Below are positions 22,601-53,692 of a DNA stretch of 64,000 bases, piece after piece. A model generated the notes under the pieces. It was not told the DNA's origin. It made no database searches and saw only the letters and a program-made list of their open reading frames with translations. Position numbers and translations under genes: made by a program. Origin of the DNA: a virus. The stretch spans positions 41,332 to 105,331 of IMG/VR virus record IMGVR_UViG_3300026097_001200; one strand, written 5' to 3'. Each line of letters starts with the position of its first letter. Position 1 is the stretch's first letter.

Positions 22601-22622
22601 ACAATATTTAAGAACTATAACA

Positions 22623-22979: not shown

Positions 22980-23004
22980 CAGCATAACCAAAATCAACTA
23001 TACT
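22976..23004 (+). promoter_or_regulatory. sigma70-like early promoter
   Basis: AGG-TTGACA-N17-TATACT-ATATACATAG. Confidence 0.8.
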
Positions 23005-23030
23005 ATATACATAGAAAGTGAGGAGCATGC

Positions 23031-26206: not shown

Positions 26207-27056
26207 CAAAAAACCTGACAGAATATTTGCGTTTGGGTGTAGTTTCACAAGTTACAAATGGTCAATGTGGCCAGAGATTATTCATTATGCCACTGGCATT
26301 CCTACATATAACTACGGTCGTATGGGAGCAACCAATCACTATATTGTGAATCAAATAGTGCTTGCAAACAAGCTGCATAAATTTTCCAGTAATGATCTTG
26401 TGATTGTGGTCTGGACTGAGCCAAACAGACACGAAAACCTGCATAATCACAGCGGAAAATCTTTCTTAAAGTGGGAAAGATACCCTAGCATAGAAATTTT
26501 AGATTATGCGATAGGAAAAATGATTAATCAACTTAACGACGTTGCAACAACAATGTCGTATCTCGATGCTACAAGAGCACAGGTTCATTACTCTTCATTG
26601 AATGATTTCAGAGTAGGTCCTGAAATAGGTAAGTTCCCGGAAAGATCAACCATACTCAAGGTTTATGACAGTGAGGGTGACAGGTTTTTACCGTCGTTTA
26701 ACAATATTGTAAACTTTGATGTACGCGAAAGAGAATTAGAGCTAAAACAAGTATTCAAAGGAAAATTTTTCGATTTGCATCCTTTTCCTAATCAATCTTT
26801 ACGTTGGCTTACAACTTTATTTGACTATGACTTTTCGGCAGTTGAACGTCGAGTGCACGATCATGAGCAGGAAATCATTGACAGTATCAGGAAAGTGGTA
26901 CTAGATCCAGGTTATAGTCCTGGTCCAGAATTTCCTGGAATAAATCCTAAGGAATTACCCGACTCAGTGTTCTTATGCCCAAAAATTAATGCGTACCACA
27001 ATGATATTAGTTGGCATACGATTCTTCGTAACGGCGGCTTACCCACTCCCAACTAA
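26187..27056 (+). CDS. SGNH-fold protein
   Basis: AFGCSFT, NYGRMGATN, VVWT...R and distal DLHP. Confidence 0.7.
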   Translation: MLTPLYNKKPDRIFAFGCSFTSYKWSMWPEIIHYATGIPTYNYGRMGATNHYIVNQIVLANKLHKFSSNDLVIVVWTEPNRHENLHNHSGKSFLKWERYPSIEILDYAIGKMINQLNDVATTMSYLDATRAQVHYSSLNDFRVGPEIGKFPERSTILKVYDSEGDRFLPSFNNIVNFDVRERELELKQVFKGKFFDLHPFPNQSLRWLTTLFDYDFSAVERRVHDHEQEIIDSIRKVVLDPGYSPGPEFPGINPKELPDSVFLCPKINAYHNDISWHTILRNGGLPTPN

Positions 27057-30015
27057 ATGAATCTTGTAGTTTATTTGAGTCGCCGTTGACACTAGAAAAA
27101 TAATCAAGTGCAGACTCAACTGCATGCTGTGTTACTTTACTTTCACAGGCTTTCCACTGTGATAGTCTATACTCGTTTTCTATATCAGGCAAGCTAGCTT
27201 GTAGTTTGATCGTTTCACGGAATGCAGTGCGCCATTCTGTAATCTCATCACCATACACCGCAGTGCCACTTACAACAGGTACCACTTCGTGCGCTTTTTC
27301 CATTGTAAGGTCTAACTCTGTGCCAGTACTACTGAGTAAAAGATCTTTGTTATAAGCAACAGCGGCCATGTGCCCATAGGTCAATCCTGTTGTAGGATTG
27401 TGCGCATGGAAAATATAGTGCTTGGGCTGTTGCATTCTGTCAGGTTGCCAGTTCCAGTCAAAGTCTTCGGCTACATTTAGCTTTGCAGGCACTAGAATAA
27501 ACCAATCAGTGCTTGCTAGCTCTGCGGCTTTTTTAAATGCTTCTAGTCGTCCGTTGATGCCTTCTACTACATGCAACTGTTGATTGTTTGGTAACACCGC
27601 ACGTAGACGCTGTAAATGCGTCTGTGACACCGTTTCACCGTTGCTTACAAACACTACATCCAGTGCCGATACTGGGTTATTAGCTTGTGTTTTATCTATA
27701 TAAGCATAGTCATACAACTGTGTTTTCACAACTCCGTGTGCTTCTTTTGGCACAATCACAGTGGTGGCACCACTGTCCAACGGCATAACGGTTTTAGTTT
27801 TATCTCTCCACAAGCTAACAGTAGGTATCTTGGTCGGCACAGTACCTACTGTAAACACGGTCAGCGGAGCAGCGGCAGTGTGAGTCTTTACACGATCTAC
27901 ATGACTGTTATCAGAATGCTCCACAACTGGCATTGGCCAGCGAGGCACAGATTGATCTGTTGCGTAGTTTACTGTTTCAAACCAATCCAATATCTCAATG
28001 TTTTCTATTCCATGTTTAAAGCTAGGCACATGCAGGAAGAACGTATCACCGAATTTTTGCTCGTTGCTAGGAAACACATGTAGCATGTGCTTTTGCCATG
28101 CTTCTGGCTGCCAAGAAAAATCAAAAGACTGATAATCACACACTGTGCTTGTTACCCAGATATACTCATCTGCCGCACTGTCTACTAGACGTTTAAGTGT
28201 GTCAAGATAATTGTCAAAGTACCGAGCTTGCTTAACCACGCGATAATTGTTTTGTAAATGATCAAACACTTGATCTCTTTCTGGATTGCCGTGGTCAATC
28301 ACATAAATGCTATATGCATCAGCAGGTGCATGCACTGTTTGATTTTCAACAAAATTCAAATTAGGAAACTGTTCGATACTGTCAGCCCAGCGGCAGTGCC
28401 TATCAAACTCCCAGCGGTTGATCAAAAACGTATCACTCCACTTGTTCCACTGACTGCCAAACACATGTGTCATTGATCTCTGCCAAGGCTCTGGATGCCA
28501 GTCAAAGTCAAATTCACTGTAGTCATTTTCACTGCCGATTACCCAAAAACGCTGTGTTGTGCTTTTCTTGGCACAGCGTTTCACAGTGTCTAGCACAGAG
28601 TTAAAATAGCGCACACGTTGTATACCTGGATACCTTTCTGCTAGTGCATCAAATCTGGCACCAGAACTGGCATTACTGCGATCCATGTAAAAAATATCCA
28701 GTGTTTTTATTGTTTTACTTTCTAGTGTACGCTGAGGAATATCACCTGCAAATTTGATCTCGGTGGCGCCAGGCACGGTGTAGGTTAAATTCACACTGCT
28801 TTGATAGTCTGTGCCAAAATGATATATGTATGGAGGATCGCCTGGATCAGGTATCCAGCTAAAGTCTACTGCATCTGCATCTACTTCTTCGGGTACTGTC
28901 CAGCGCCGCTGATCGGGCTGTAGTGTTGCAACAGGATCCATTATGAATTTTCTTTCTGTTGCTCCTGGCATATGATATTCAATGGTACTCATTATTTCTG
29001 CATTATGCCATTGATTACCAAACACGTAAATGTAAGGCGGATCACCAGGGTCCGGGCACCAACTACGGTCGAACTCAAACTCGAATCCGTGTTCTGGAAC
29101 ATGCCAATTTGTGTTTGTTTCTAGCAGTGTTGCACGAGGATAATCAACAAACTTGCGTTCACTGGCACCGGGCATGTGGTATTCCATGGTGGGCATAATT
29201 TCTGCATCGTGCCACTGATTGCCAAACACATAGATGTACGGTGGATCGTCAGGGTCGGGTTCCCAACTAAGGTCAAACCTGCACGGACTATACAGCCATT
29301 GCCATAATTCTCCGTTGCTTGCACAGCGAGTGGCCTTTACTTCGTTTACATATTTGCGTTCAACTGCGCCTGGCACAGTGTAGGTTGCACTTGTTCTTTT
29401 TTCAGCAGGCCACCACTGATTGCCAAACACATAGATATAAGGTGGATCTGTTGGGTTTGGTCTCCAACGGAACAGTGGATCTTCCAGCAATAAGTTGTCT
29501 TGTATTTCAAACAAAGAACTGTCGTGCTTGGTTGTAACAGTAAAATCGCTTACAAACTTTCTGCCGATTGCATCTGGCATTCTGTATTCTGCGCCGCCTA
29601 TTCTATCCCAACCCCATTCAACTGGAAATTCATAGATATACGGCGGGTCCATTGGATCAGGACTCCACTGTGAATCAATGCTAGCAGGATCAATATAATC
29701 CGGAATATACCAAAAAGCTGGATCACTGTATCTATGAAGAACTGGCAATTCATGCCACGTGGTTTCGGTGTAACCTGCCTTGGGCACTAGATATGTGCCG
29801 CCATCCAGCTGATGTTGATTAGGCCAGGCATGTCGTTGATGTGACTGCCACGGCGCAGGTTCCCAAAGAAAATCCCAGTTACTGTAATCAGATAAGTAAT
29901 CAACAATCCAACAATATCGAGTACGAGACATTTCACACGCATGATCTATATCTCTAGCACGAACAGCATGTACACCCTCGGGTGCACGATTTCCTAGGTA
30001 AAATATATCAAACAT
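27007..30015 (-). CDS. multi-module glycosyltransferase-like protein with internal repeats (1002 aa)
   Basis: Four GT-A-like modules (DIF/DVVF...W(I/V)...F.W.P..W...H.F) and five DPPYIY repeats. C-terminal WRTAFRETIKL resembles WRAGFREGVKM of 49907..50830. Confidence 0.7.
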   Translation of the reverse strand: MFDIFYLGNRAPEGVHAVRARDIDHACEMSRTRYCWIVDYLSDYSNWDFLWEPAPWQSHQRHAWPNQHQLDGGTYLVPKAGYTETTWHELPVLHRYSDPAFWYIPDYIDPASIDSQWSPDPMDPPYIYEFPVEWGWDRIGGAEYRMPDAIGRKFVSDFTVTTKHDSSLFEIQDNLLLEDPLFRWRPNPTDPPYIYVFGNQWWPAEKRTSATYTVPGAVERKYVNEVKATRCASNGELWQWLYSPCRFDLSWEPDPDDPPYIYVFGNQWHDAEIMPTMEYHMPGASERKFVDYPRATLLETNTNWHVPEHGFEFEFDRSWCPDPGDPPYIYVFGNQWHNAEIMSTIEYHMPGATERKFIMDPVATLQPDQRRWTVPEEVDADAVDFSWIPDPGDPPYIYHFGTDYQSSVNLTYTVPGATEIKFAGDIPQRTLESKTIKTLDIFYMDRSNASSGARFDALAERYPGIQRVRYFNSVLDTVKRCAKKSTTQRFWVIGSENDYSEFDFDWHPEPWQRSMTHVFGSQWNKWSDTFLINRWEFDRHCRWADSIEQFPNLNFVENQTVHAPADAYSIYVIDHGNPERDQVFDHLQNNYRVVKQARYFDNYLDTLKRLVDSAADEYIWVTSTVCDYQSFDFSWQPEAWQKHMLHVFPSNEQKFGDTFFLHVPSFKHGIENIEILDWFETVNYATDQSVPRWPMPVVEHSDNSHVDRVKTHTAAAPLTVFTVGTVPTKIPTVSLWRDKTKTVMPLDSGATTVIVPKEAHGVVKTQLYDYAYIDKTQANNPVSALDVVFVSNGETVSQTHLQRLRAVLPNNQQLHVVEGINGRLEAFKKAAELASTDWFILVPAKLNVAEDFDWNWQPDRMQQPKHYIFHAHNPTTGLTYGHMAAVAYNKDLLLSSTGTELDLTMEKAHEVVPVVSGTAVYGDEITEWRTAFRETIKLQASLPDIENEYRLSQWKACESKVTQHAVESALDYFSSVNGDSNKLQDSFSWEWVSRRYEESYAN
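28740..29720 (-). repeat. five tandem ~67-aa repeats W.PDP.DPPYIY.FG.QW...Y..PGA.E.K
   Basis: Five copies visible in the translation. Boundaries approximate. Confidence 0.85.
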
Positions 30016-31141
30016 GATTAGAATTGACGAACTTTATAACAATGTGTTTTGGCCGTGGATAAGTCAAAATATACCTTTGTGTAGAATGTATTTTTGTGAT
30101 CCTCCCGGACAAAGTGATCCGGATAGTTTATATAATTATGGACATGATCTCCATGAACTACATTATATATACTTTCACGACCAAGAGCCAATTCATTTGG
30201 ACCTACACAGACCACTTTTTAACGAAGTAGCAGAACGCAGCAGAGATCTTGACTTTGACCGAGAAGCTTTTGGTAAAGCAGTTGTTACCAGTGAGCACAA
30301 CAGCGAGTTTGTTGATCAAATCTGCGAAGACTACGGCTGGCGACAATACTATTACTTTTTCCATGGCTGGGCAGCAATGGATTGGTACCGAGGATACAAT
30401 CGATCTTGGTTGATGCCCAAGCCAGAAGACAGGAAAATGAAACGCAGTTTTATTTGTCCAACTCGCATCGTAGGCGGTAAGCGTGATCATAGAGTATTGC
30501 TGGTATATCAGTTTATTAAACAGCAAATTGAAAATGCTTGGCTGAGCTGCCCAAGAACATGCCCGGTGGAAAACATTAACATAGAAGACATTGCTGCAAA
30601 GTTTAGCATGCACTATCCAGACATCGAGCAAACATTAAAAGATGCTGACTTGCCCTGGCAATTTCCTGGTGAAACAGATCACCCAATGCACAGTTGCTGG
30701 CTGAGCTTGTTTGATGAGTGTGCCGAAAGTTTAGCATATGTTGTTACTGAAACAGTGTTTTCAGGTCGTAGGCATCATTTAACTGAAAAAACATTTAAAC
30801 CAATATGTTTACAAATGCCATTTATACTGGTTGCACCGCAAGGCAGCCTAGAATATCTTAAACTCTACGGCTTTAGAACCTTTGATGATTTTTGGGACGA
30901 AAGCTACGACCAAGAACCAGACGATTATCGCAGACTAGAAAAAGTAGCTGAGCTGTGTAAAAAGATAGATAGTATGACATCTGCAGAAAGAACAGATATG
31001 TACAAGGCAATGATGCCAATCATTGAACACAATTACAATCATTTCTACCACGGAGGATTTGAAACTGTGCTTTGGACAGAACTGGAACAAATGCTAGAAC
31101 AGATGCAGAAAGATTTTAAAATAAAGGGTATTGATAGATGA
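30014..31141 (+). CDS. putative glycosyltransferase-like protein (TEK-T-K family)
   Basis: VVTET...LTEKTFKPI...PFILV...LK.YGFRTF..FWDESYD. Confidence 0.6.
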   Translation: MIRIDELYNNVFWPWISQNIPLCRMYFCDPPGQSDPDSLYNYGHDLHELHYIYFHDQEPIHLDLHRPLFNEVAERSRDLDFDREAFGKAVVTSEHNSEFVDQICEDYGWRQYYYFFHGWAAMDWYRGYNRSWLMPKPEDRKMKRSFICPTRIVGGKRDHRVLLVYQFIKQQIENAWLSCPRTCPVENINIEDIAAKFSMHYPDIEQTLKDADLPWQFPGETDHPMHSCWLSLFDECAESLAYVVTETVFSGRRHHLTEKTFKPICLQMPFILVAPQGSLEYLKLYGFRTFDDFWDESYDQEPDDYRRLEKVAELCKKIDSMTSAERTDMYKAMMPIIEHNYNHFYHGGFETVLWTELEQMLEQMQKDFKIKGIDR

Positions 31142-32178
31142 CATCACAAATAAAAGCGTATACTAGTTGGCAACCACTGGAAGAAGTAATTGTAGGCAAT
31201 GTGTTTACGCCAGAACACTTTGAATTTATCGAAGATCGGCAGGTATTCAATCAGCTTAGTCAGATACTTGAGGAAAGTGCCGAGGACCTGGATAATTTAC
31301 AAAAAACCATCGAAGAATACGGTGCACGAGTACGACGCCCGGATCTACCTAATGTACATCGTTTTCATGAGCAACAGATTGCCGACCAAGGTGCTCCACT
31401 GCCTCCATTGACTCCAAGAGACTGGCAGATTACACTGGGCGATAAACTATTGCGTGTATTGCCTGTACAAGAACTGGATAATATCTGTGCAGACCTAGAA
31501 ACCCATAACCCTGGACAGGTAATAAACCCGCATCAAGGAGAATGGGACGAAAATTGTGTACTCAACGGCGCAAGTGCAAGTTGCATTGTACGAGTAGGCA
31601 AAGACGTTTTCTTTGACAATTCAGACTATTTAAAACCAGAACAAACTCGCTGGATTGTCGACAATGTTCTAGGCTCAGAATATCGTATACACGAAGCTGT
31701 TACTGACGGGCACGGCGATGCTGTGTTTGCTATTCTCAAACCAGGTGTGCTATTGAGCAGCAAATGGGATGATCAGCTGGATCTAGCAGGCGACTTTCCT
31801 GGATGGGATGTTTGTAAAATCTGGGATAGTTCAATATGGGCAGCAATGGAAGTTGGCAAATTTAAACAGGAAAACTTTAACGGTCGTTGGTATGTTACAG
31901 GACAAACGCCTACTCCAGAATTTTCAAACTTTGTAGACAGTTACCTGAGTCAATGGGTAGGATTTGTGGAAGATACAGTGTTCGATGTAAACTGTTTGGT
32001 GCTGGACGAAGAAAATGTTATTTTTAGTGCATACAACAAACAGGTATTTGACTACTGCGAAAAACACAAGATCAATCCTATTGTCAGTGAACTACGACAC
32101 AGTTATTTCTGGGACGGAGGAATCAGTTGTTGTACGCAAGACCTACGTAGAAAAGGTGAGTTAGAGAGCTATCTCTAG
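31138..32178 (+). CDS. amidinotransferase (glycine/inosamine-phosphate amidinotransferase family)
   Basis: [21 protein letters not shown] and GGISCCTQD (catalytic Asp/His/Cys). Confidence 0.85.
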
Positions 32179-32516
32179 CTCTCCATATAATGCTGTATAT
32201 ATTGTACCTTGCCGGGCACATCTGTCCATGATTTGTGATCTGACAACGGGTCTATTTTTTGAGTAATATTGTTATCTGCCCATTTTGCTGATAGCTCTGC
32301 ATTTATTTTAAACCAGTCAATTCCGTCATCGGGTACTTCGTCTTCTGCAACAATGGCATCCACAGGACACTCTGGAATACAAACTGCACAGTCAATGCAC
32401 TCATCAGGGTTGATTACAAGAAAGTCAGGACCTTCGTAAAAACAGTCCACTGGGCATACATCAACACAGTCTGTGTGTTTGCATTTAATACAATTGTCAG
32501 TTACTAAGTGTGTCAT
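32175..32516 (-). CDS. fdxA: 7Fe/8Fe ferredoxin, FdxA type
   Basis: [29 protein letters not shown]...[17 protein letters not shown]. Confidence 0.95.
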
Positions 32517-32523
32517 AAGTCTC

Positions 32524-33231
32524 CTAGGTTACAAATGCACGTTCAAGTACAAACGTGCCTGGATTTTTCTTATTGCCTTCAGTGTATCCATTGGATACTA
32601 AAAGATTTTTCATGTCTTGGTTGAATGCCATACTGCCGCATAACATCACTCTATCTGTTTCTGGGTTACTATTAGTCATTATAGCGCCAGATTCAATATG
32701 TTTTTGTATACGTCCTGTGTTAACAAATTCTTCCTGAGTTACTGTCGGGAAATAATCTATGTCAAGATCTTGCAAAAACTCGTGATAACTTAATAATTCA
32801 GCAGGTGTTCTCACAGTCCAGGTTACATGTACTCGTTTGTAAATATTGAAGATTTCTCCGTCTCGTAACAAACTGATAAAAGGTGCAATGCCAGTTCCAG
32901 TTGCCATTAGCCAAAGATCGTGTCCTGGTTGCACAAATTGTGTTGTTAAACTTCCTGTTGGTCGATCGCCTACTTCTATAGTATCACCAGGTTGTACATG
33001 TTGTAGTCTACTTGTTAACGGACCATCGGGTACCTTAATACTGTAAAATTCCAGAAACGGATCTCCTGGTGCACTGGTAATACTGTAAGCTCTCATGAGA
33101 TCATTATCTCCCATTCCTATCATTGTAAACTCACCAGCACGAAAAGTAAAGTCATTTGGCTTTTCTGTTCGGATCCTAAACAGTCGATCTGTGTAGTGTT
33201 CTACTTCTGTTATTTTTAATATTTCTGACAT
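32524..33231 (-). CDS. fpr: ferredoxin--NADP+ reductase
   Basis: [26 protein letters not shown] and ERAF. Confidence 0.95.
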
Positions 33232-35437: not shown

Positions 35438-35445
35438 GTACGGCC

Positions 35446-35574
35446 TTACTTGTAGATGAAAGGATCTCTTTTACGAAGTTCCTTGAGTTTTCGCTTATAT
35501 TGAATATGCAGTTTGATTCTGCGATATGTGTCAAGCACCCAGCGAAATGTAATAATATATTTTAACGTGTTCAT
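35446..35574 (-). CDS. small basic protein ending KRDPFIYK (42 aa)
   Basis: Manual translation MNTLKYIITFRWVLDTYRRIKLHIQYKRKLKELRKRDPFIYK*. AAGGGG RBS with an ATAATTA motif upstream. Confidence 0.75.
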   Translation of the reverse strand: MNTLKYIITFRWVLDTYRRIKLHIQYKRKLKELRKRDPFIYK

Positions 35575-35598
35575 GGTTTTCCCCTTGCACTGTAATTA

Positions 35599-44071: not shown

Positions 44072-44072
44072 G

Positions 44073-45197: not shown

Positions 45198-46680
45198 TGT
45201 AATCCTCGATATGCTGTATTATTTTTTTATGTTTTGCGTAAGAAGCAAATCCACCATGCGCATTATCATATTCATGGTCTATGTTTTTGTATTCTTCAAC
45301 ATGCCAGTAAGGATGTAATGTATTACAACTGTCAATTGATTTTTTCATTGGCAACTCTAACCATGTACATATATGTGCTAAGGTTTCCTGCGGCGAAAAA
45401 ATTATGTCTTTTAAAAGAATTTTCTTAATGTTTCTGTTTTCAATGGCGTCGTTGAAGTGCGCAGGAAAGGCAAACAAATTGTTGGCAAAATTCAGTGCAG
45501 ATTCTTTGTGCAAGACAGTGTGTAAAGTGCGCAATACATCTTCTAATTCAAAATTTTTATTTTGTATTACAATCAAATTTTTTACTCGGGTTTGTAAATA
45601 GCCAAACCATTCGTTGATGTTTATCTTGTGTTGCTCTAAGAGCTTATTATGACTTTCGATTGATGTTTCATAAAACAGATTATCACTGTCAGTAATATGA
45701 TGTAAAACCTCCGTTAAGCATTGGCTAGCTACGCTGGTATTATGTACAATTAAATTACAGTCTGCAAGGGTTTTGTTGACTACCTGATCGTAAATCTCAT
45801 TTAATATTTTTTCTTTTTTTTCTGCAATGTAAAATACAGCAGGATAAATGTTTCTAACTTTTGGAGTAGCCAACAAGTCTACAAATTCTTGACTCTGTAT
45901 TGGTAACTGTTTTAAACAGTCATGATAAATTATGCTGTCAGTACTTGATATTGATTTTAATTGTGTTAAATGTTGCCTTATTTTTTGTTTATGTATATCT
46001 GGAATTTTTTCACGCAACACTGGATTTTTATCTCTGAACAAAGTTAGAATTTTTTCATCTTGATCTAGGTACGCCTGTCTATCCTGCCAAAAATTGATAG
46101 ATTCTTCTATCTCCTTGGTAGATCGTGCACTATTCTTATGTTTCCACCATTGACATAAGGTAGTTAACGTCTTCACTGGTCTGTTAACCAACTGTTTCAT
46201 TTTAACTACATGTAAGTTGCAGTGTTCGATACTGTTAATCTGGTTTGATGCATTTTGAAAAGTAGAGATTGCTCTTGCTAGTTCAATAACATTTGTAACT
46301 TTTGTAAAACTGCAAAAGGGCATTTCGGGTTGTCTATTGTTGAGCAATTCTAGTATGCAGTTTGTAGGATCAATGACCACTGTAGGACCCGTGTCTGCAA
46401 TTTCTAGAATGTCAGATTCTATGTCATTGACATTGTAATGTAATCTCACTATGCTACTTGTTGTGTTTGTATTTGTAAGATGATATTCATCGTGTCTATT
46501 GATAAAATTATCACGATAATTGTGTACGCTACCGTTTTCGGTTATAACGTCTTCAATGCTTTGGTAATTTAGATCATCTAACCATCCTAGTGCCCAGCAT
46601 AAAAAGTTTCCGTAATCTCCGCCTGTATGTACTACACGGAGATCAAACTGTTCGAGATATTTCAAATAGTCGTCATGCAT
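45178..46680 (-). CDS. hypothetical protein, possibly a tandem sulfotransferase-like/P-loop domain
   Basis: N-terminal VVHTGGDYGNFL. The two halves share K.L...P..TL...C.W. AT-rich. Confidence 0.5.
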   Translation of the reverse strand: MHDDYLKYLEQFDLRVVHTGGDYGNFLCWALGWLDDLNYQSIEDVITENGSVHNYRDNFINRHDEYHLTNTNTTSSIVRLHYNVNDIESDILEIADTGPTVVIDPTNCILELLNNRQPEMPFCSFTKVTNVIELARAISTFQNASNQINSIEHCNLHVVKMKQLVNRPVKTLTTLCQWWKHKNSARSTKEIEESINFWQDRQAYLDQDEKILTLFRDKNPVLREKIPDIHKQKIRQHLTQLKSISSTDSIIYHDCLKQLPIQSQEFVDLLATPKVRNIYPAVFYIAEKKEKILNEIYDQVVNKTLADCNLIVHNTSVASQCLTEVLHHITDSDNLFYETSIESHNKLLEQHKININEWFGYLQTRVKNLIVIQNKNFELEDVLRTLHTVLHKESALNFANNLFAFPAHFNDAIENRNIKKILLKDIIFSPQETLAHICTWLELPMKKSIDSCNTLHPYWHVEEYKNIDHEYDNAHGGFASYAKHKKIIQHIEDYSDKHRE

Positions 46681-48097
46681 GATTGTTTTTACTCCTATAC
46701 TCGCACAGCTTCCACCAGTCGCTCATCTCTGGAAAAGTTTCCTGGAAGTTTGTATTTCTTCTTCGATCATGCTCGCTGAAAAATCTATAAAAGTCAGCCT
46801 GTGCACAATGTAGAAATTCTGTGTCTAAATCTTGCCCGTTTCGCATCCAGGCAATGTCACGATCCAATCTCTGTATTTCGTAGTCCTTAAATCCTTTAAG
46901 TCGTGTGTCTGCTGTTTCGGCTTGTGCAATCATCCAGCTCCACAATCTTTCCAGTTGTACTACATAGCTTTCTGGCAGTATCTGCAGGCTCTGCCACTCA
47001 GGTTGTCTTAGCACAGGAGTATCAAACCAAACTCGCTGATAGGTCTCGCTGTACACTTTACGCAAGCCCAGTATACCAGCAAATAGATCACCTAGGCTAG
47101 GAACACTGAGATTGTTCATAGTTACAATAAAAGTAAGACTGCTACGCTCTGGCACTTCATTTAAAAATTGATTGCATCTATCCCACATGAGATCAAAGTC
47201 AAGACCGTTGCGCATGTATTCTGCTTGCTTGCCCCAGCCGTCGACACTGACAAACTGCATATAGTGTTCAACATGTCCTTCGTTGCACAAACGCTTGACA
47301 TATTCTAAATATTTTTTCCACAAACGTTCATCAACGCTGAAATTACTAGTAACATTTAAATGCAATTTGGGATTAGGATTTTCCAACACATAATCAAATA
47401 CACGATAGGTATTTTTATCCATCAACGGCTCGCCACCGGTCATACGAAAGTGTTCTAGTTCTGGATATAGTTCAGGCCACCATTTCCAAAATGCTTCTAC
47501 ATAAGGATTGTGTTCTCTTGCAGGTATCGGGCGGCGATCTCCTTGAAAGTGTTTTGGGTCGTTGTGCGGTGTACTAGTAGGCCATGCACCATGTTTTTCA
47601 GTTTCTTCCATCCACGAACTACTAAACTGCGGACTGCAATAGCTGCACCGCAGATTGCATGCACTGTTAAAGTTTACTTCTACATATGCAGGATTCACAT
47701 CTTCGTCACCGGTGCTGGCAATAATATTATCAAAATCTTTGGCGGCCCACGGCTCACCTGATCTATAGTGTCTGTCGCTGAGTTTACCGTTATCCTCCAT
47801 TGCCCAACAATAGCTGCATTCTTCTGGACGTTCTCCGGCAAGCATACGTTTACGCTGTTGTTTTTTCCAAGCAGTGTTGTGCAGTGCGCTGGGATTGTTT
47901 TCGAGTTCAAGTGCATCAATTCTATGCAAAGGAGGATGATAACAACTGTTGTTATAGCCATTGGTGAGGTGTAAACTAACCTGTTTCCACTTTGCTAGAC
48001 ACATGCCAGGGCCAACCTGATTCAGTGCGTCTCGCATGTCTTCTGCGTTGGTAATAAACCCACTGCGAAAGTCTTTGTTTACTTCGTCACCTTTCAT
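46673..48097 (-). CDS. radical SAM protein, N-terminal Twitch domain
   Basis: CLAKW...SCYH...CSYC, then CNLRCSYC and GGEP. Confidence 0.92.
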   Translation of the reverse strand: MKGDEVNKDFRSGFITNAEDMRDALNQVGPGMCLAKWKQVSLHLTNGYNNSCYHPPLHRIDALELENNPSALHNTAWKKQQRKRMLAGERPEECSYCWAMEDNGKLSDRHYRSGEPWAAKDFDNIIASTGDEDVNPAYVEVNFNSACNLRCSYCSPQFSSSWMEETEKHGAWPTSTPHNDPKHFQGDRRPIPAREHNPYVEAFWKWWPELYPELEHFRMTGGEPLMDKNTYRVFDYVLENPNPKLHLNVTSNFSVDERLWKKYLEYVKRLCNEGHVEHYMQFVSVDGWGKQAEYMRNGLDFDLMWDRCNQFLNEVPERSSLTFIVTMNNLSVPSLGDLFAGILGLRKVYSETYQRVWFDTPVLRQPEWQSLQILPESYVVQLERLWSWMIAQAETADTRLKGFKDYEIQRLDRDIAWMRNGQDLDTEFLHCAQADFYRFFSEHDRRRNTNFQETFPEMSDWWKLCEYRSKNNHA

Positions 48098-48945
48098 AGA
48101 TCTTTTTTATACTCTGCGTAGATTTGATCGCCGTTGTACTTTTCTGGACAGAATTTGCACTGCGGTATACTATTGCCGATATTGGCAAAGAACTGTTCTT
48201 TGTTTTCTGCGTCTACTGTTAGCGGTTGATAACTTTGCATGAGTTTTCTGTCACTGTTACTTAATTGTAATTGATACTGCGAGTCAAATTCTGGCAGCAG
48301 TGCTACCACGCCACACTTGTAGAGTTTTCCGTCTATCCAGTGGTGACAATTTTTCATGTGGCAATTGCTGTGAGCCAATTCTGGATCGCTGTTGTGTAAC
48401 CGCTTTACACCAAGTTGATCTATTATAGATCCTTGATGAAACCACCAGTTGTATTCAATCCGGGTAGCAATGCCATTGCAGTCTCGCAAAATTCTGTAAA
48501 CATTGTACGGATCATCGTTGTTTACAGTATCGATCACTGGCCCTTCTAACCATTGATGAACTCTAGAAACCACATCCGGTACATGATTTTCGTTGTGTAT
48601 ACCAACCCATACGCTAAATCTGTCTTTGTACTCTCTATTGAGATCGTAAAGATCTTGTCTGTGTTCAATTCTATAGCCATTGGTAATCAATCGCAAGTAT
48701 GTGTCGGGCCAAAGCTCAAGTATGCCGCGGCACCAATCAATTACATCTGGATTAAGCAAAGGTTCTCCACCAAGCACTGCACAGTGTCTAATAGACACAG
48801 ATTTACTCCACTCTCGGTACACAGGTTCTAAATCTGCCCAGCGTTGGCGTCCACGGAAGTTGTAGTTGTTGAATCTGTTGCAACCAGGGCAACTGAGATT
48901 GCACACATTGGTAATGTAAAATTCAGAATAATCTAATTGGTGCAT
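48094..48945 (-). CDS. radical SAM protein with C-terminal Cys cluster
   Basis: CNLSCPGC and GGEP. C-terminal CHMKNC...YKC...CKFC. Confidence 0.9.
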   Translation of the reverse strand: MHQLDYSEFYITNVCNLSCPGCNRFNNYNFRGRQRWADLEPVYREWSKSVSIRHCAVLGGEPLLNPDVIDWCRGILELWPDTYLRLITNGYRIEHRQDLYDLNREYKDRFSVWVGIHNENHVPDVVSRVHQWLEGPVIDTVNNDDPYNVYRILRDCNGIATRIEYNWWFHQGSIIDQLGVKRLHNSDPELAHSNCHMKNCHHWIDGKLYKCGVVALLPEFDSQYQLQLSNSDRKLMQSYQPLTVDAENKEQFFANIGNSIPQCKFCPEKYNGDQIYAEYKKDL

Positions 48946-49913
48946 GGTATACTTGCTATAAAATCTTTGTTCATATCCAGCAAAAGCTGCCTATTGTGCT
49001 CTAGTGTGGGCAACATTTCGTTGTAGATTTTTTTGATTTCGTCGGCGGGTTTTTTGGCTAGACGATCAATTACTTTTTTAATCTCGCCTGGCTGCCAGTC
49101 AGCTGGATCTTCGGCATAACCTTCGTCCCACCATTGATTAAAAGTTTTGAATCCTAATTTTTGTAATCTATGTAAAAAATGCTGGGACCCTTGTACTATA
49201 AACGGAGTTTGCATTATGATAGGTCTCCAGATTTTTTCTGTTGGGAAAAATGTATTTCCTACATAGGAAGTTTCGCACACAATTTCTACAAAAAAATTTC
49301 TGTATTGCGAATACATGTTACAGTGTTGATTCATTAAAATTGGATACTCTACTGTTTCCTGTAATCTGATTGGACAATGCCGTAAAAAGTTTGATATAGA
49401 CGCAAGATCACCGGTTCCTTGTATTTCTACTAGAGTGTCAAGTCCAAGGTTGTTCTTATGATAATCGTCTGAGTAATCATAATGAAAAGTTTGATTTGTT
49501 TGCTGTCTATACTTGTTGAACAAGTAACTGCTTAGATCCAGTCTATGACAATTACTACGTCCTACAAAAATACCAAATGTTTTTGTAATATCTTTGTTGA
49601 TTGGTTTGTTTTCTAGTTTTTTAACAGTGTTAAAAACAAAATGATTAGGAAAAACAGTTTCGAAATTGATTTGATCAACAGACTGCTGATAGGTATTGCA
49701 ACTTGTAACAGTGATATTATCGAGATTATAATTGTGTTCTTTGCAGATACGTATCAATGAATCGAATATATCTAGATTTTCAAAAGCAGGTCCTTCAGAC
49801 AGAAGATCAATACACACAGGTTGATTGTTGCAAACAGCCGATGTAAATTGCGAAACAACTTCTATTTTGTTCCACACATAGCTGTCGCTGGTAATCAATC
49901 GTATTGTTACCAC
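48933..49913 (-). CDS. putative glycosyltransferase-like protein (TEK family)
   Basis: EIVCET...PTEKIWRPI...PFIVQG...LQKLGFKTF..WWDEGY. Confidence 0.6.
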   Translation of the reverse strand: MVTIRLITSDSYVWNKIEVVSQFTSAVCNNQPVCIDLLSEGPAFENLDIFDSLIRICKEHNYNLDNITVTSCNTYQQSVDQINFETVFPNHFVFNTVKKLENKPINKDITKTFGIFVGRSNCHRLDLSSYLFNKYRQQTNQTFHYDYSDDYHKNNLGLDTLVEIQGTGDLASISNFLRHCPIRLQETVEYPILMNQHCNMYSQYRNFFVEIVCETSYVGNTFFPTEKIWRPIIMQTPFIVQGSQHFLHRLQKLGFKTFNQWWDEGYAEDPADWQPGEIKKVIDRLAKKPADEIKKIYNEMLPTLEHNRQLLLDMNKDFIASIPCTN

Positions 49914-50830
49914 CCTTCGATCTGCCTAATTACATCAATTTCACGGACCATTATACCGCGATTGACCCAATCGCTGCGATAGTGCTGTTTAAAAAATGCA
50001 CTGGCAGTGTCAGAAAAGTCAGCCAGTGGCAACTCCAGTTGTGTTGCTAGATCTTCACTTACACTGCCGATTACTTCTCTTGGATGCCGATCTTCAACTG
50101 TGGTCCACAATTCAGCTAGTTTGTCAAAGTCTTGCACATCTTTATAGTTCCAGTTGGTTAACATGGTCATGTAAGTGCCTTGCCTGGCACCTGCAATTGC
50201 CCATTCACCGTTTTCCACATCGTAGCCAACGTTGTGCCAGATAGTCAAATGATCAAGATTTCTTTTGTGAACGCTATCTTTGAATTCATCAACACTGGGC
50301 TTTGTGCCTTTGTTGAGGCACATTTTTACACCTTCTCTGAATCCTGCCCGCCATGCATGAAAAGCACTGCCATTGGGATAAGTTACACTGTAACAGTCAT
50401 GCATTGCCCAGTACAATGGATCAAAGCAAAACTCAACATCAGTGTCATCGGAGCCTGTGCTGTTTTCGTGTGTGTTCATATTAAACACAAAGTCTTTGGT
50501 CCATGAACTAACACCGCCGTTGCCGTACATCAATCCATTGACAACATTTCTAGCTCGCCAACGATAAACAGCACGTTGATATTCTTCTGTGGGCATGTCC
50601 AGCGTTTGATTGAAAAAATCAGCTTCTGGAATATTGTCACCATCAATGAGAATAAAGCGATCAGTATCTGATTCTTCAGCGGCAGCTTTGTGGGCAGCAT
50701 CGCTGCCTTTAACACCGTCTACTCGTTTGGCCCAAGGAATCATGTTTTTGATCTGAACCCAGAACTCTTCTTTCAGTGGCTCGTCGTAGGTAAGAAAAAT
50801 ACAGTCTAAATCTGCTACATCTACTTTCAT
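49907..50830 (-). CDS. GT-A-fold glycosyltransferase
   Basis: FLTYDEP, RVDGVKGSDAAHKAAA, IDGDN (DxD), YGNGG and AWRAGFREGVKM. Confidence 0.75.
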   Translation of the reverse strand: MKVDVADLDCIFLTYDEPLKEEFWVQIKNMIPWAKRVDGVKGSDAAHKAAAEESDTDRFILIDGDNIPEADFFNQTLDMPTEEYQRAVYRWRARNVVNGLMYGNGGVSSWTKDFVFNMNTHENSTGSDDTDVEFCFDPLYWAMHDCYSVTYPNGSAFHAWRAGFREGVKMCLNKGTKPSVDEFKDSVHKRNLDHLTIWHNVGYDVENGEWAIAGARQGTYMTMLTNWNYKDVQDFDKLAELWTTVEDRHPREVIGSVSEDLATQLELPLADFSDTASAFFKQHYRSDWVNRGIMVREIDVIRQIEGW

Positions 50831-50831
50831 A

Positions 50832-51482
50832 TTAATGTCCTAAAATAAATCTCACACTGCCGTTGCAATTAAAGTATCCCCGTCCGTGCCAGTCATGTCC
50901 TCTTAGTTTAGGACAATCAAACATTTTTAACTTGTACCCACTCTGCGCCACTGTGTTGTAAAACTTGGTTAGTACTATATCCAAGTTATCACTGGGCAAG
51001 TTTTGCATTTGATCGAAATTAAAAGTAAACAAAAAGTCACGTTTAACAACACGCATTGCGTTGTGTATCTGCTTAGGCAAACTTTGCCAGTCGCAGTAGT
51101 GTAGACTGCCCAGTGCCATGCCAGCGTCCCAGAAGTTTTCATTGATGTCTGCATAATCTGTATCAAAGTATGCTATGTCATCCACTGTGCCGCCCGGCCA
51201 TTCTTCAGTGTCCACTCCTATAATGCCAGGAAACCAGTTTGCGAATATGTTTTCACCACAGCCTATGTCAACCACACTGTCTGGTTCACAGGTATACAGT
51301 CGATCAATATACCAGAAGATATCTCTAAAGCCAATTTTCAATCCGCTTTCATATCTATATCTAGGAGTGCTTTTTGGAATCTCTACGTCCAGTGACACAT
51401 AGTCATAGTGTTGATGTAGTCTAGCATCTAGATCAGGAAAAACTGCAAAAGTCTTTTCAGGTGAATAATTATTTACAAGCAC
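50832..51482 (-). CDS. SAM-dependent methyltransferase-like protein (paralog of 16803..17510)
   Basis: VDIGCGEN..WFP.IIG.D, GSLHY and C-terminal NG..RF.L. Confidence 0.7.
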   Translation of the reverse strand: MLVNNYSPEKTFAVFPDLDARLHQHYDYVSLDVEIPKSTPRYRYESGLKIGFRDIFWYIDRLYTCEPDSVVDIGCGENIFANWFPGIIGVDTEEWPGGTVDDIAYFDTDYADINENFWDAGMALGSLHYCDWQSLPKQIHNAMRVVKRDFLFTFNFDQMQNLPSDNLDIVLTKFYNTVAQSGYKLKMFDCPKLRGHDWHGRGYFNCNGSVRFILGH

Positions 51483-51793
51483 TGCTTTAACTCCCAGTGA
51501 TAATCTGTATCTGCAATTACCATTACATTGTTTGGTAATGTACTTGTGCCCGATGTACCTGGTACAAGTTTTGTTGGCACAGTATCATTTATCTCGACTA
51601 TTTGATTGTTTTTTATAATCACATTGTAGTTGCCTTGAGCATACTGTGCCTTGCTGATGTTAATATATTTAAAATTCAAGTCTTCCATGCTATAGCATAT
51701 AGGTTCACCGGTGCTTTCATTATAATACAATCTATATTCAACTTCAACTGAATTGAGTTGAATTTTTGCAAACTCTTGTAAAAAATCATTCAT
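51473..51793 (-). CDS. hypothetical protein (EYRLYY...G)
   Basis: Overlapping operon gene. ATG at 51793 preferred over the track start. Confidence 0.7.
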   Translation of the reverse strand: MNDFLQEFAKIQLNSVEVEYRLYYNESTGEPICYSMEDLNFKYINISKAQYAQGNYNVIIKNNQIVEINDTVPTKLVPGTSGTSTLPNNVMVIADTDYHWELKQCL

Positions 51794-52595
51794 AATACGG
51801 CTCAAACTGCTTGGCTAATTCTTTACAGTGATAGTGCCACAATGCACACTGTGTATATCCATTGACTCTTACTTGCCCGCTGTCGATTTCCCAGGTTAGG
51901 CTTTTATGCCACTCAGTGGGTGTGCGAACAATGTCACTTTTCATGTGAACTATCCTGGGTGATAGATTGTGCGGTAAGGTACATTTTTCGATACCACAGA
52001 TCAGTGTTGCTAGACTGTATGCAAGATCAGTGTTAGGCAATTCACCACGTGCATATTTAACAGCAGTCATTGCATCTGACCAATTATCAAAAAGCTTTTT
52101 CACTGTTACAAAAAATTTCTTTGCCATCTCGCTTTGTCGCCAATAGGTAAATGCGTTGTAAGTGTCAGGAAGATTGTTTTTATGTATTACATTTCTATAA
52201 CGACGGCACTCTACTGATTCGCCTTTAAAGTCCAGTGCACCTGTGCTTACTACTATATCTCGATGACGCAGCATATCCCAATAATGGTCAATTGGTTGTG
52301 CAATCAACATGTCAGCTTCTAACTTGATGGTTTCATGAAAAGGACTTGCAATATAACATTGCCAATCATTAGCATAGGGATTATCATCTGTGCGCAGATC
52401 ACCATAGGGCAATGTTTTAACTATGTCAAAATCGTTGTCTGCTGGTAGCTGTTTATCTGTTAGTAAACAAACAACGGCATTCTTGTGCCAGTGCTTTAAA
52501 CTACGACTTAACACACGAGCACATGTTGTATAATCCGAGTCCTGCGAATCTATAGCAACAATGAGATATCCTCGATCATGTGCGTATGCTGTCAC
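51786..52595 (-). CDS. GT8-like glycosyltransferase
   Basis: GYLIVA...Y..CA..L, SPF.ETIKLEADM, TDL..S, VHMK and WHYH.K. Confidence 0.75.
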   Translation of the reverse strand: MTAYAHDRGYLIVAIDSQDSDYTTCARVLSRSLKHWHKNAVVCLLTDKQLPADNDFDIVKTLPYGDLRTDDNPYANDWQCYIASPFHETIKLEADMLIAQPIDHYWDMLRHRDIVVSTGALDFKGESVECRRYRNVIHKNNLPDTYNAFTYWRQSEMAKKFFVTVKKLFDNWSDAMTAVKYARGELPNTDLAYSLATLICGIEKCTLPHNLSPRIVHMKSDIVRTPTEWHKSLTWEIDSGQVRVNGYTQCALWHYHCKELAKQFEPYYE

Positions 52596-53364
52596 ACTGT
52601 GCCCCTAAACTGATTTTGTCAGATATGTGAATATCATTGTAGACTATAATTCTTTTTTTCTTGTCGTTGAGAGTGTAGGTAACTTCTGTGCTATAGTCTA
52701 GCAATTTAAAGTCACAGTGATGCGACACTGTGGTCATGCTCCAAGGTATATTAGTAAACTCTGGTATACGACCGCCGTTGACCATTAATAATGCCAGTGT
52801 TAGTGCATAGTCGTTTCTAAAAGGAGATTTATTAAATCTAAACAAATCACTGTAATGGCCATAGTTTTGTTCTATCATCTGCCAGGCGCTGAACACTGAC
52901 TCTGCAAATCTATTTCTTGTAAATTGACACACTGTAGCCCATACATGAGGTGTATTGGTTTTGCCGAATGTTTCTTCTTGCATGGTCAAAGGCAGATACT
53001 GATTGTTGTGAAAGCACAAAAACTCATTTTCTGAATCTAGCACTGATTTCAACTCATTACCATTGAGAAAATAATCACAGTCTAGTAACAGTGTATTTTC
53101 ATAGGGCGATAATGTGTATGCACTGCTACGAGAACGATTATACCACTGATCTCGATGTTCACTAGCATGCCAGTATCGATCTCCGCCAGAAGACTTTTCA
53201 GAATGTATTACAGTATCAAACACTGAGTTGTCGACATCAACATCACTGACCAATGTCACAGGAATATCTAGATATTTTTTTACACGTCTAGCACATTCAC
53301 TGGCTATGCTAACATAATCAATGCTGTGATTGTTGAATGCAAAAATTAGTGCGCCGGTACTCAT
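52576..53364 (-). CDS. GT8-like glycosyltransferase
   Basis: GALIFAFNN..DY, R..AY.LSPY..TLLLDCDY (DxD), WAT and FRNDYA. Confidence 0.8.
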   Translation of the reverse strand: MSTGALIFAFNNHSIDYVSIASECARRVKKYLDIPVTLVSDVDVDNSVFDTVIHSEKSSGGDRYWHASEHRDQWYNRSRSSAYTLSPYENTLLLDCDYFLNGNELKSVLDSENEFLCFHNNQYLPLTMQEETFGKTNTPHVWATVCQFTRNRFAESVFSAWQMIEQNYGHYSDLFRFNKSPFRNDYALTLALLMVNGGRIPEFTNIPWSMTTVSHHCDFKLLDYSTEVTYTLNDKKKRIIVYNDIHISDKISLGAQCDSIRT

Positions 53365-53666
53365 CTTTCCTGCTGAATTTTTTCATACTCGGCAAGCCAC
53401 ACATTCATTTGTTCTTGCCATCGCTGTTGTGCGGCCAATTCAAGTTCTGTTACATCAATCCTAACAGGATTAGCATGAACATCTAATATCACTGCTGATT
53501 CATCAGGACATGCTTGCAGCACATTGAGTAATTCTGGACCTGCACACCACATGCCGCCATTGTATGCAAAATGCAACTTAGCAAGCATGCGTTCTTTGAG
53601 TACTTGTTTAGCTGTTTCGTGGTCGAAACGAGATCGAATTTGATTAGAAATATCTGTAGAATTCAT
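53361..53666 (-). CDS. hypothetical protein
   Basis: 101 aa, YNGG.W and ILD..NP.I. First gene of the GT/radical-SAM operon. Confidence 0.75.
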   Translation of the reverse strand: MNSTDISNQIRSRFDHETAKQVLKERMLAKLHFAYNGGMWCAGPELLNVLQACPDESAVILDVHANPVRIDVTELELAAQQRWQEQMNVWLAEYEKIQQER

Positions 53667-53692
53667 GTAAGTAATTATACATGAATTCTACA
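53655..53692 (-). promoter_or_regulatory. perfect 15-bp inverted repeat masking the start codon, with a late-promoter-like motif at the loop
   Basis: Minus strand TGTAGAATTCATGTA-TAATTACT-TACATGAATTCTACA. The second arm contains ATG AAT TCT ACA. Confidence 0.75.

Follow-up and report, generated by a model that had tools for sequence, protein, structure and literature searches.

The DNA analysed here is a window of 64,000 nucleotides comprising bases 41,332-105,331 of the 105,331-bp IMG/VR virus record IMGVR_UViG_3300026097_001200, and its subject is a gene island at window positions 27007-53666 that encodes eight radical S-adenosylmethionine (SAM) proteins alongside glycosyltransferase-like proteins, a carbamoyltransferase and an amidinotransferase. 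The island is most likely phage-encoded glycan machinery within the fibre module, for which partial precedents are in print. Twenty-two minus-strand genes form one run from 53666 down to 32175, counting a peptide gene that an earlier first-pass annotation of this sequence had overlooked, and neighbours in the run overlap by 4-20 nt or are separated by gaps of 1-8 nt; a plus-strand pair (30014-32178) and a minus-strand gene for a 1002-aa protein (27007-30015) complete the block. Fibre genes flank the island on both sides. The gene directly upstream (53711-54676, minus strand), which precedes the island in all relatives, encodes by its composition a Ser/Thr-rich, fibre-like protein and candidate acceptor: with 30.8% Ser/Thr it is the richest of 109 open reading frames (ORFs; mean 12.4%), as expected from the placement of the island behind Ser/Thr-rich genes in the first-pass annotation, the intervening gap being 44 nt and not 45. 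The neighbouring gene (54683-56056) contains a Peptidase_G2 intramolecular-chaperone domain.

At the start of the run lies a perfect 15-bp inverted repeat (53655-53692, minus strand); its loop region contains TATAAT, and its second arm the ATG with which the first gene of the operon begins. The corresponding gap of relatives contains instead a strong intrinsic terminator, a GC-rich hairpin with a T-run behind it, and then a TATAAT-like box 7-9 nt ahead of the ATG; transcripts with a very short leader, or with none, are suggested by this arrangement. Because this terminator and promoter-like box follow the fibre gene in relatives, a single transcript for fibre genes and island was rejected there, and the island is a transcription unit of its own, separate from the fibre gene. 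The sequence TAAAAT was also noted 9 nt ahead of the ATG at 30014.

Conserved core and variable slots

For the assessment of conservation, all ORFs of the fragment were mapped onto 86 related loci. A syntenic core was found beside fibre genes in at least 80 viral contigs, including complete T4-like genomes of 317-353 kb, and the island adjoins fibre genes in every relative locus mapped. With genes named by their lower coordinate, the core order runs from the fibre genes through the gene for a 101-aa protein, two GT-A-like glycosyltransferase paralogues, a gene for a 110-aa protein, the 49907-type gene, a variable slot and the radical SAM gene 46673; it continues with a GT-B glycosyltransferase gene, the radical SAM genes 42719, 39601 and 38381, (a GT-B gene) and the radical SAM gene 36659, and ends with the genes for a 350-aa protein, the small peptide and the carbamoyltransferase and another variable slot. 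On the opposite strand, the amidinotransferase and two GT-B genes follow, and then the giant modular protein. Core components are thus five twitch-type radical SAM proteins, GT-B paralogues, three GT-A-like proteins, the carbamoyl- and amidinotransferase, the 350-aa protein and the peptide. Several of these enzymes (the radical SAM proteins, the amidinotransferase and 49907) share 65-78% identity with their relatives and are better conserved than the adjoining fibre proteins (~35-55%).

The genes for a ferredoxin, a ferredoxin-NADP reductase, a nucleotidyltransferase, a 283-aa radical SAM protein, the radical SAM proteins 44073 and 41304, and the 500-aa, methyltransferase-like and 241-aa proteins are accessory: they are shared with the closest relative or few relatives only and occupy the variable slots of the core order. 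Since ferredoxin and reductase are limited to this phage and its close kin, the electron-transfer chain is a strain-level addition and not a feature of the system. The first-pass description of the island as self-contained, with its own electron-transfer chain, was therefore overstated, the nucleotidyltransferase likewise being found only in this phage and a close relative. Co-conservation across related genomes held for the core and failed for the accessory genes.

The island is real, abundant and strongly conserved. The virus record has an estimated completeness of ~30% (CheckV), and a 14-kb query gave no DNA-level match among 50,697 phage records. Related contigs are up to 317-353 kb long; terminal repeats were found in two of them, and four complete relatives encode a gp23-type capsid protein as in T4 (E 1e-97). 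Given relatives of this size with a gp23-type capsid protein, the source is a fragment of an uncultured giant T4-like myophage, and its island is that of a large clade of T4-like phages from water, uncultured and with genomes of 320-350 kb. Each member of this clade devotes 20-27 kb to the island block. Lake and marine metagenomes are rich in the clade: one island enzyme by itself has over 7,850 close homologues. Protein matches in cultured phages are distant radical SAM relatives only (Vibrio phages K566/K567 and Ralstonia phage RsoM2USA, 20-23% identity); Vibrio phage K566 encodes four twitch-like radical SAM proteins, interleaved with ORFs without homology to the island families. The full phage island, at ~70% identity, is also contained in two contigs (148 and 183 kb; L098, NZ_JBBAKG010000003.1; L099, NZ_JBBAKG010000001.1) that were binned in a 'Haliscomenobacter sp.' metagenome-assembled genome (MAG). 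They were rejected as a bacterial context, as both look like phage contigs of the clade binned with a bacterium, and the binning is at most a weak hint of the host.

Radical SAM and transferase enzymes

The eight radical SAM proteins expected from the first-pass annotation were all recovered with Pfam and NCBIfam models, with CxxxCxxC intact in each. Seven of them match NF033640 ('N_Twi_rSAM') at 257-403 bits over the full model length (curated cut-off 170 bits), and in these a SPASM/twitch-type Cys domain (PF13186) lies N-terminal to the radical SAM core (PF04055). The five core members, all on the minus strand, are encoded at 46673-48097 (330 bits; at least 73 loci, 65-72% identity), 42719-44071 (303 bits; 78 of 80 loci), 39601-41322 (403 bits over residues 174-571, preceded in this phage by a 173-aa N-terminal extension; 80 of 80 loci), 38381-39604 (337 bits; relatives of 63-94% identity in at least 99 viral contigs, besides the more than 7,850 metagenome proteins mentioned above) and 36659-37975 (292 bits; at least 71 loci). 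On the same strand, 44073-45197 (257 bits) is accessory with no close orthologue in relatives, and 41304-42722 (277 bits) is found in few relatives, with best-hit orthologues in 3 loci. The eighth protein (48094-48945, minus strand; 283 aa, PF04055 at E 4e-11) is devoid of a twitch domain; it carries CxxxCxxC at residue 15 and is accessory, with counterparts in 2 related loci only.

In the whole 105-kb fragment, nine NF033640 members and 15 PF04055 matches were detected. The nine paralogues share a mutual identity of only 17-28%, with C9, C28, C74 and C77 of the twitch domain and C123, C127 and C130 of the core invariant. Among 14 control genomes, none had an NF033640 match above the cut-off, and of the 401 Bacteroidota genomes sampled 4 did, so that the array is not due to chance. 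By profile, the nearest solved radical SAM enzymes are viperin (E 1.5e-8), BlsE (E 1.5e-6) and MoaA (E 2e-5), all of which act on nucleotides or nucleoside-sugars, a point in favour of a glycan pathway. No literature naming NF033640 was found, nor any characterised member, and membership in this family is informative on neither substrate nor reaction; five of the core proteins belong to this family, whose domain order is reversed and for which no reaction is known, and this makes the island a ready source of new enzyme chemistry.

The two proteins first annotated as 'TEK'-family glycosyltransferase-like, encoded at 30014-31141 (plus strand) and 48933-49913 (minus strand), are both predicted to adopt GT-B folds, the former from its AlphaFold model and the latter from its alignment to 30014 orthologues (hhalign 99.8%, E 1e-29); each phage has 2-5 paralogues. 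The 30014 model (predicted local distance difference test score, pLDDT, 89.4; predicted template modelling score, pTM, 0.88) retrieved only GT-B glycosyltransferases as top matches in Foldseek (best E 5e-4). In VIA it scored highest against T4 beta-glucosyltransferase (Z 10.4, 267 aligned residues, root-mean-square deviation 5.0), followed by an alpha1,3-fucosyltransferase (Z 9.6) and T4 alpha-glucosyltransferase (Z 9.1), with more GT-B enzymes just below; of the 50 best rows, 47 are glycosyltransferases or relatives of the GT-B fold, and Z values of 10.4, 9.6 and 9.3 were reached over 249-267 aligned residues. Because these rows are tied, the model would not support the naming of a CAZy family for 30014. 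A Pfam scan of 36 members of the 'TEK' family gave no hit at E up to 1 beyond chance hits. CAZy family GT10 was considered and rejected, as there was no Glyco_transf_10 match among the 36 members and the Z of 9.6 is tied with unrelated GT-B enzymes; the TEK motif common to GT10 and the island family is a resemblance only. Further paralogues are encoded outside the island at window positions 3198-4328 (hhalign 98.8%) and at 971-1981 of the virus record (G000). The former belongs to an isolated minus-strand pair (1934-4328) with an N_Twi_rSAM gene (1934-3190, 224 bits), and the pairing of radical SAM and GT-B genes recurs on the same record at G000 971-1981 / 16955-18319.

The best structural match of the GT-B model raises the question of whether DNA is the target, with the GT-B enzymes glycosylating phage DNA bases and the other enzymes editing the appended sugars. 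We consider this very unlikely. The T4 glucosyltransferases score within 1 Z of fucosyltransferases and protein O-glucosyltransferases, a hydroxymethylase of the thymidylate-synthase family was not found in five relatives (four of them at least 95% complete), and TET/JBP gave no match in the four relatives at least 95% complete, a search in which the control genomes were silent as well. The island, moreover, sits in the fibre module and not in the replication module.

Three further proteins resemble GT-A enzymes. Two of them, initially called GT8-like, are homologous to each other (hhalign 98.8%) and encoded on the minus strand at 52576-53364, with an invariant D95-x-D97 (alignment A7), and 51786-52595, with E93-A-D95 at the DxD position; the third, called GT-A (49907-50830, minus strand), is a core protein of ~70% identity across relatives with an invariant D63-G64-D65 (alignment A3). 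The nearest named Atlas clusters, which are language-model neighbours, are PF03407/PF01501 at 0.95 for the former two and an auto-named 'Glycosyltransferase 2-like' cluster at 0.99 for 49907. Against a 16-sequence GT8 alignment, 52576 and 51786 fell into the right motif register, with weak hhalign values (E 0.004, probability 8%); 51786 also matches PHROG 1903 (E 1.7e-8), a family of unknown function, and weakly Mannosyl_trans3 (E 0.11). None of the three gave a Pfam hit even at E 10, PF01501 included, and 49907 had no PDB sequence match. The GT8-like and GT-A calls thus kept their motifs and neighbours and found no Pfam model behind them, so that all three proteins are weak candidates, resting on DxD-type motifs, language-model neighbours and weak hhalign scores.

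The 1002-aa modular protein (27007-30015, minus strand; 600-2047 aa in relatives) had been described as a giant multi-module glycosyltransferase. One C-terminal GT-A-like module, homologous to the 49907 family, was found at residues 781-938 (hhalign against A3 93.6-95.3%, E 2e-7 to 2e-8); it is without DxD, and the other segments gave no detectable glycosyltransferase likeness in hhalign. A relationship of the giant protein to the GT-B family was rejected, as none was found. Profile searches of the PDB with the families of 35599, 30014, 49907, 51786 and 52576 returned nothing usable.

The core carbamoyltransferase (33929-35437, minus strand) is of the NodU/CmcH/TobZ type, with PF02543 (Carbam_trans_N) at E 2e-38 and 133 bits (cut-off 24) and PF16861 (Carbam_trans_C) at E 4e-49 and 167 bits (cut-off 27); the NodU model matched at E 2e-39, below its cut-off, and orthologues occur in 63-73 loci. 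The core amidinotransferase (31138-32178, plus strand) was missed by single-sequence Pfam and NCBIfam scans and confirmed with a profile of 23 sequences (A4) searched against the PDB, in which five solved amidinotransferases of the pentein fold were matched over profile positions 4-106 and 277-341, among them AGAT (E 6e-18), HsvA (E 9e-14), StrB1 (E 3e-13) and SxtG (E 3e-12). It is 74-78% identical across relatives, with invariant C331/C332 near the C-terminus, H192 and D194. Relatives at 29-32% identity were noted in the single-cell-associated Marine virus AG-345-D19 (MH319724, MH319727), where the amidinotransferase and an N_Twi_rSAM homologue share a 7,955-bp contig, and in the cyanophage S-SCSM2R of Synechococcus (PQ898602, 244 kb).

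Aminoglycoside pathways employ the StrB1 amidinotransferase, the TobZ carbamoyltransferase and the twitch radical SAM enzyme BtrN, and the profile match of the island amidinotransferase to StrB1 is in line with a free small molecule as product, an aminoglycoside-like pseudo-oligosaccharide bearing guanidino and carbamoyl groups and acting on the host or on competitors. This seems highly improbable to us, as Pfam scans of the island revealed no cyclitol synthase or exporter, at least seven glycosyltransferase-like genes would be excessive for such products, and the conserved adjacency to fibre genes would be left unexplained. The enzyme classes of aminoglycoside tailoring are the same as those of the island, whose carbamoyltransferase has the two-domain NodU/CmcH-type architecture.

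Candidate pathway and acceptor

A virus-encoded pathway for a glycan or glycoconjugate, as proposed in the first-pass annotation, is supported by the GT-B folds, by the amidino- and carbamoyltransferase, by sugar-nucleotide genes in relatives and by a bacterial locus. The four complete relatives (G403-G406) each contain 3-4 genes of the short-chain dehydrogenase/reductase (SDR) family PF01370 and 1-3 DegT genes (PF01041), and in all four one SDR and DegT pair abuts the gene that corresponds to the giant 27007. On the present contig, two SDR genes are found 20 kb upstream of the window among more radical SAM genes. An amino sugar is the natural acceptor for both the amidinotransferase and the carbamoyltransferase. 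In the bacterial MAG contig L100, an N_Twi_rSAM gene overlaps the start of a carbamoyltransferase gene, and is thus translationally coupled to it, within a polysaccharide locus whose downstream genes encode a GDSL protein, UbiA, a GT4 glycosyltransferase, an NAD-epimerase and a UDP-glucose dehydrogenase. As a side observation, a 219-aa ORF that weakly matches DegT lies between two SDR epimerase/dehydratase genes in the upstream region (G000:C1:13717-24545; L009/L010), which also contains three radical SAM genes, of which one is N_Twi.

Our preferred reading, put forward tentatively, is that the island quite possibly encodes soluble enzymes of a cytoplasmic pathway in which an unusual glycan with amino sugars is assembled and chemically edited. 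Nucleoside diphosphate (NDP)-hexoses of the host would be converted to deoxy-amino sugars by phage SDR dehydratases/epimerases and a DegT aminotransferase, and in this phage the RfaE/TagD-like nucleotidyltransferase may activate a further sugar- or polyol-phosphate. The GT-B ('TEK') and GT-A-like transferases would add these sugars to a soluble acceptor, the amidinotransferase would transfer an amidino group from arginine to an amine to yield a guanidino sugar, and the NodU/TobZ-type enzyme would attach carbamoyl groups. The five core twitch-type radical SAM enzymes, with three extra ones here, would then carry out epimerisation, oxidation, deoxygenation or C-C bond formation initiated by H-abstraction, their clusters being reduced in this phage via NADPH, Fpr and FdxA and in relatives presumably by host reductants. 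The acceptor would most likely be the neighbouring fibre proteins. We infer that the radical SAM enzymes act on sugars, that the steps follow this order and that the virion is the target; observed are the enzyme families, the predicted folds, the conserved synteny and the lack of membrane segments.

In an alternative reading, host surface sugars are altered during infection, with changes to host lipopolysaccharide (LPS) or capsule blocking superinfection. Such a role was put forward for clusters of T4-like phages from water that are rich in GT8 genes and contain radical SAM cassettes (PMC7029224), and the bacterial relative L100 stands within a polysaccharide locus. Membrane segments were not found in the island proteins, in which a 19-residue Kyte-Doolittle window never exceeded 1.61, and Pfam scans of the island revealed no lipid-carrier machinery (polyprenyl-phosphate transferase, flippase or polymerase); together these results argue against synthesis of a host-surface polysaccharide. 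A block so costly, maintained at 65-78% identity, would also be unusual for an exclusion function, and we consider host-surface modification distinctly unlikely. For the glycan pathway, fibre proteins are the most economical guess as soluble acceptor, and decoration of the virion is favoured only by the conserved adjacency to fibre genes. Should the product decorate the fibres, this would be the first phage-encoded glycosylation that combines radical chemistry with guanidino and carbamoyl groups, with a bearing on host recognition by these phages.

The peptide gene (35446-35574, minus strand) occupies a 161-nt 'gap' between the genes for the 350-aa protein and the carbamoyltransferase. It is a conserved ORF of 42 codons here and 33 in relatives, with the essentially invariant C-terminus LRKRDPFIYK, and ends 8 nt before the carbamoyltransferase start, abutting it in L098. 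The gene was found in 73 loci, in 52 distinct DNA versions over which residues 24-32 (LRKRDPFIY) are invariant while 2-6 synonymous codons are used per residue, and the stop codon always follows residue 33. As these residues persist despite synonymous codon variation, the gene is translated and under very strong purifying constraint, and no other island gene is as conserved. The contig has a single copy, and none was found in the bacterial, CP220 and K566 loci examined. Three roles are conceivable for its product: substrate of a radical SAM enzyme, small subunit, or leader/arrest peptide of the carbamoyltransferase gene to which it is coupled.

As a radical SAM substrate, the peptide would be the 33-residue scaffold of a glycosylated product: the twitch-type enzymes would modify the C-terminal DPFIYK by cross-link, decarboxylation or epimerisation, after which the glycosyltransferases and the carbamoyl- and amidinotransferase would decorate it, following the logic of mycofactocin (MftA/MftC/MftF), pyrroloquinoline quinone (PQQ) or glycosylated RiPPs (peptides that are made by the ribosome and modified after translation). 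The strong purifying selection with nine invariant C-terminal residues, the presence of a short precursor-like gene inside a block of radical SAM and glycosyltransferase genes in 73 loci, and weak NCBIfam hits of the radical SAM paralogues to peptide maturases all speak for such a product, and SPASM/twitch enzymes commonly mature peptides with a C-terminal Tyr (PqqA, MftA). Pfam and NCBIfam scans of the island revealed no PqqD-like recognition domain, peptidase or exporter, of which divergent forms are possible. The coupling to the carbamoyltransferase start fits a leader/arrest peptide or small subunit equally well, the bacterial pair of radical SAM and carbamoyltransferase genes occurs without such a peptide, and sugar-nucleotide enzymes flank the island. 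On balance we regard a glycosylated peptide as unlikely. The joint claim that the peptide is the true scaffold of a cross-linked, glycosylated product, a mycofactocin-/PQQ-like cofactor or glyco-RiPP, on which five permuted twitch-type enzymes each perform a distinct, previously unseen reaction, is likewise unlikely.

Several points weigh against a fibre-directed glycan pathway. Product, substrate and acceptor are predictions from genes, NF033640 is a catalogued family without a characterised member, and SPASM/twitch enzymes frequently act on peptides; a nearly invariant peptide gene lies inside the island, and the three GT-A-like calls are without statistical support. Ser/Thr-rich fibres are common in phages without fibre glycosylation, and the boundary between fibre gene and island in relatives leaves co-expression with structural genes unsupported. 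Furthermore, a chromosomal Bacteroidota locus (L112, G081:C2:1208000-1227999) contains two N_Twi_rSAM genes and no glycosyltransferase among the scanned ORFs. It comprises three PhyH-like ORFs (two of them Pfam-confirmed), a WelO5-like oxygenase, a methyltransferase and two B12-dependent radical SAM proteins, and adjoins the gene for an 842-aa secreted protein with a Peptidase_S74 intramolecular-chaperone domain and a type IX secretion system (T9SS) sorting domain. L112 may represent a protein-directed use of the N_Twi_rSAM family; with it and the invariant peptide, chemistry directed at a protein or peptide stays a rival.

In its protein-directed form, this chemistry would consist in direct radical modification of the fibre proteins without a glycan, with proteusin-like epimerisation, methylation or cross-linking hardening the fibres. 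Besides the combination of twitch-type radical SAM, PhyH and B12-dependent radical SAM genes with a secreted Peptidase_S74 protein in L112, it can draw on the window itself, in which genes for a SPASM-type and a B12-dependent radical SAM protein and a methyltransferase precede a Peptidase_G2 fibre gene and a PhyH gene follows it (12215-22340). It would leave the GT-B/GT-A-like, amino-sugar, amidino- and carbamoyltransferase genes of the island unexplained, and we give it very little credence.

Precedents and remaining genes

In agreement with the first-pass annotation, no characterised phage pathway has this composition; uncharacterised precedents are in print (PMC2853527, PMC7029224). The Campylobacter phages CP220 and CPt10 contain a block of five radical SAM genes with a putative glycine amidinotransferase (Timms et al., 2010; PMC2853527). 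In the CP220 record, two genes for ~260-aa nucleotide-diphospho-sugar-transferase-like proteins lie in this block, which follows baseplate genes, and each of the two genomes has 11-12 radical SAM genes. The pentein-fold protein CPT_0086 of CP220 is homologous to the island amidinotransferase (hhalign 97.7%, E 2e-12). At 249-342 aa, the CP220 radical SAM proteins are short; unlike the twitch-type members of the island, they have the radical SAM core at the N-terminus and no twitch domain ahead of it. Of the island families, the carbamoyltransferase, the 350-aa protein, the GT-B proteins and the peptide were not detected in the CP220 cluster. Its authors called that cluster interchangeable and probably non-essential (PMC2853527), whereas the island core is conserved.

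The second precedent is the host recognition cluster of pelagimyophages and cyanomyophages, a large island inside the structural module with tail fibres, many glycosyltransferases (GT8 being the commonest), rfaE-type genes and cassettes with radical SAM genes (Zaragoza-Solas et al., 2020; PMC7029224). The present island likewise lies among tail-fibre genes of a T4-like phage. The host recognition cluster is hypervariable and non-syntenic, whereas the island core is syntenic in at least 70 contigs at 60-78% identity and only its slots vary; the host O-chain modification proposed for the former (PMC7029224) is argued against here by the lack of a membrane protein.

The resemblance to aminoglycoside and mycofactocin biosynthesis is one of logic only. 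Mycofactocin (MftA/C/F) shares with the island a twitch radical SAM enzyme, a small peptide and glycosyltransferases. In the island proteins, the twitch domain is at the opposite end compared with the radical SAM enzymes of either pathway, and the island is without equivalents of MftB/D/E, as it is without the cyclitol synthase of aminoglycoside pathways.

Virus-encoded glycosylation of virions is known from chlorovirus capsid glycans, Megavirinae fibril glycans (PMC10117803) and the O-glycosylation of mycobacteriophage capsids and tails. We know of no virion glycosylation system with radical SAM enzymes, an amidinotransferase or a carbamoyltransferase. In this phage clade, virion glycosylation is a proposal from gene content. 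Virion-glycosylating viruses combine soluble glycosyltransferases with rare amino-sugar pathways encoded near structural genes, independent of host lipid-linked machinery. Literature searches on NF033640, radical-SAM jumbo phages and virion glycosylation gave no published description of this island.

Among the accessory proteins, the ferredoxin and ferredoxin-NADP reductase had been named correctly from the outset, as had the carbamoyltransferase, judged by Pfam and NCBIfam models; the protein first called a cytidylyltransferase was confirmed as a nucleotidyltransferase. The ferredoxin (32175-32516, minus strand) is of the FdxA type (NF045490 FdxA_Protbact, 151 bits, cut-off 135) with DUF3470 and Fer4 domains, and the reductase-like flavoprotein (32524-33231, minus strand) exceeds the cut-offs of PF00970 and PF00175 and matches the Fpr model PRK10926 at E 1e-35; each has counterparts in 2 related loci. 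The 140-aa sugar-/polyol-phosphate nucleotidyltransferase, similar to RfaE domain II/TagD (37962-38384, minus strand), matches PF01467 at E 6e-15 and, both below cut-off, TIGR02199 at E 1e-22 and TIGR01518 at E 2e-17, with 1-3 related loci. The methyltransferase, sulfotransferase and SGNH calls of the first-pass annotation stand as weak suggestions. A possible class I SAM methyltransferase (50832-51482, minus strand; 1 related locus) has a GxGxG-type motif and weak matches to three methyltransferase Pfam models (E 0.055-0.23), a 500-aa protein (45178-46680, minus strand; one related locus) matches Sulfotransfer_3 weakly at E 0.031 over 48 residues, and a putative SGNH protein of 241 aa (33216-33941, minus strand) has an N-terminal GDS motif only and no family hit. 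In the bacterial loci L100 and L113, GDSL proteins flank carbamoyltransferases.

Three conserved proteins of the minus-strand run are uncharacterised. The first operon gene (53361-53666) encodes the 101-aa protein, with orthologues of 42-65% identity in at least 29 loci and no Pfam, NCBIfam or PHROG hit, and 51473-51805 encodes the 110-aa protein, with orthologues in 43-55 loci and no family hit. The core protein of ~350 aa (35599-36744 as the longest ORF, with the start probably ~50-90 nt downstream of 36744) is ~60% identical across relatives (alignment A1). Its AlphaFold model (pLDDT 86) was compared with two candidate folds, both of which were rejected: a PHD2-type fold gave Foldseek values of E 0.26 or worse, and a cyclophilin-like barrel with a helical insert or bundle reached VIA Z values of 7-9, a range the tool itself calls common.

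Elsewhere in the window, a second tailoring set on the plus strand (12215-19978) immediately precedes a tail-fibre gene (17543-19978) whose product contains a Peptidase_G2 intramolecular-chaperone domain. It comprises a SPASM-type radical SAM gene (12215-13180), two genes without an assigned function, a B12-binding radical SAM gene (15280-16806) and a methyltransferase-like gene (16803-17510), and its fibre gene is followed by a PhyH dioxygenase gene (21213-22340). In the plus-strand region 20041-24296, genes for a MoxR-type AAA ATPase (20041-21141, ~71% identity in relatives) and a DUF2201 metallopeptidase/von Willebrand factor A (VWA) protein (23031-24296, ~63% identity) were noted, both of them conserved and next to the island.

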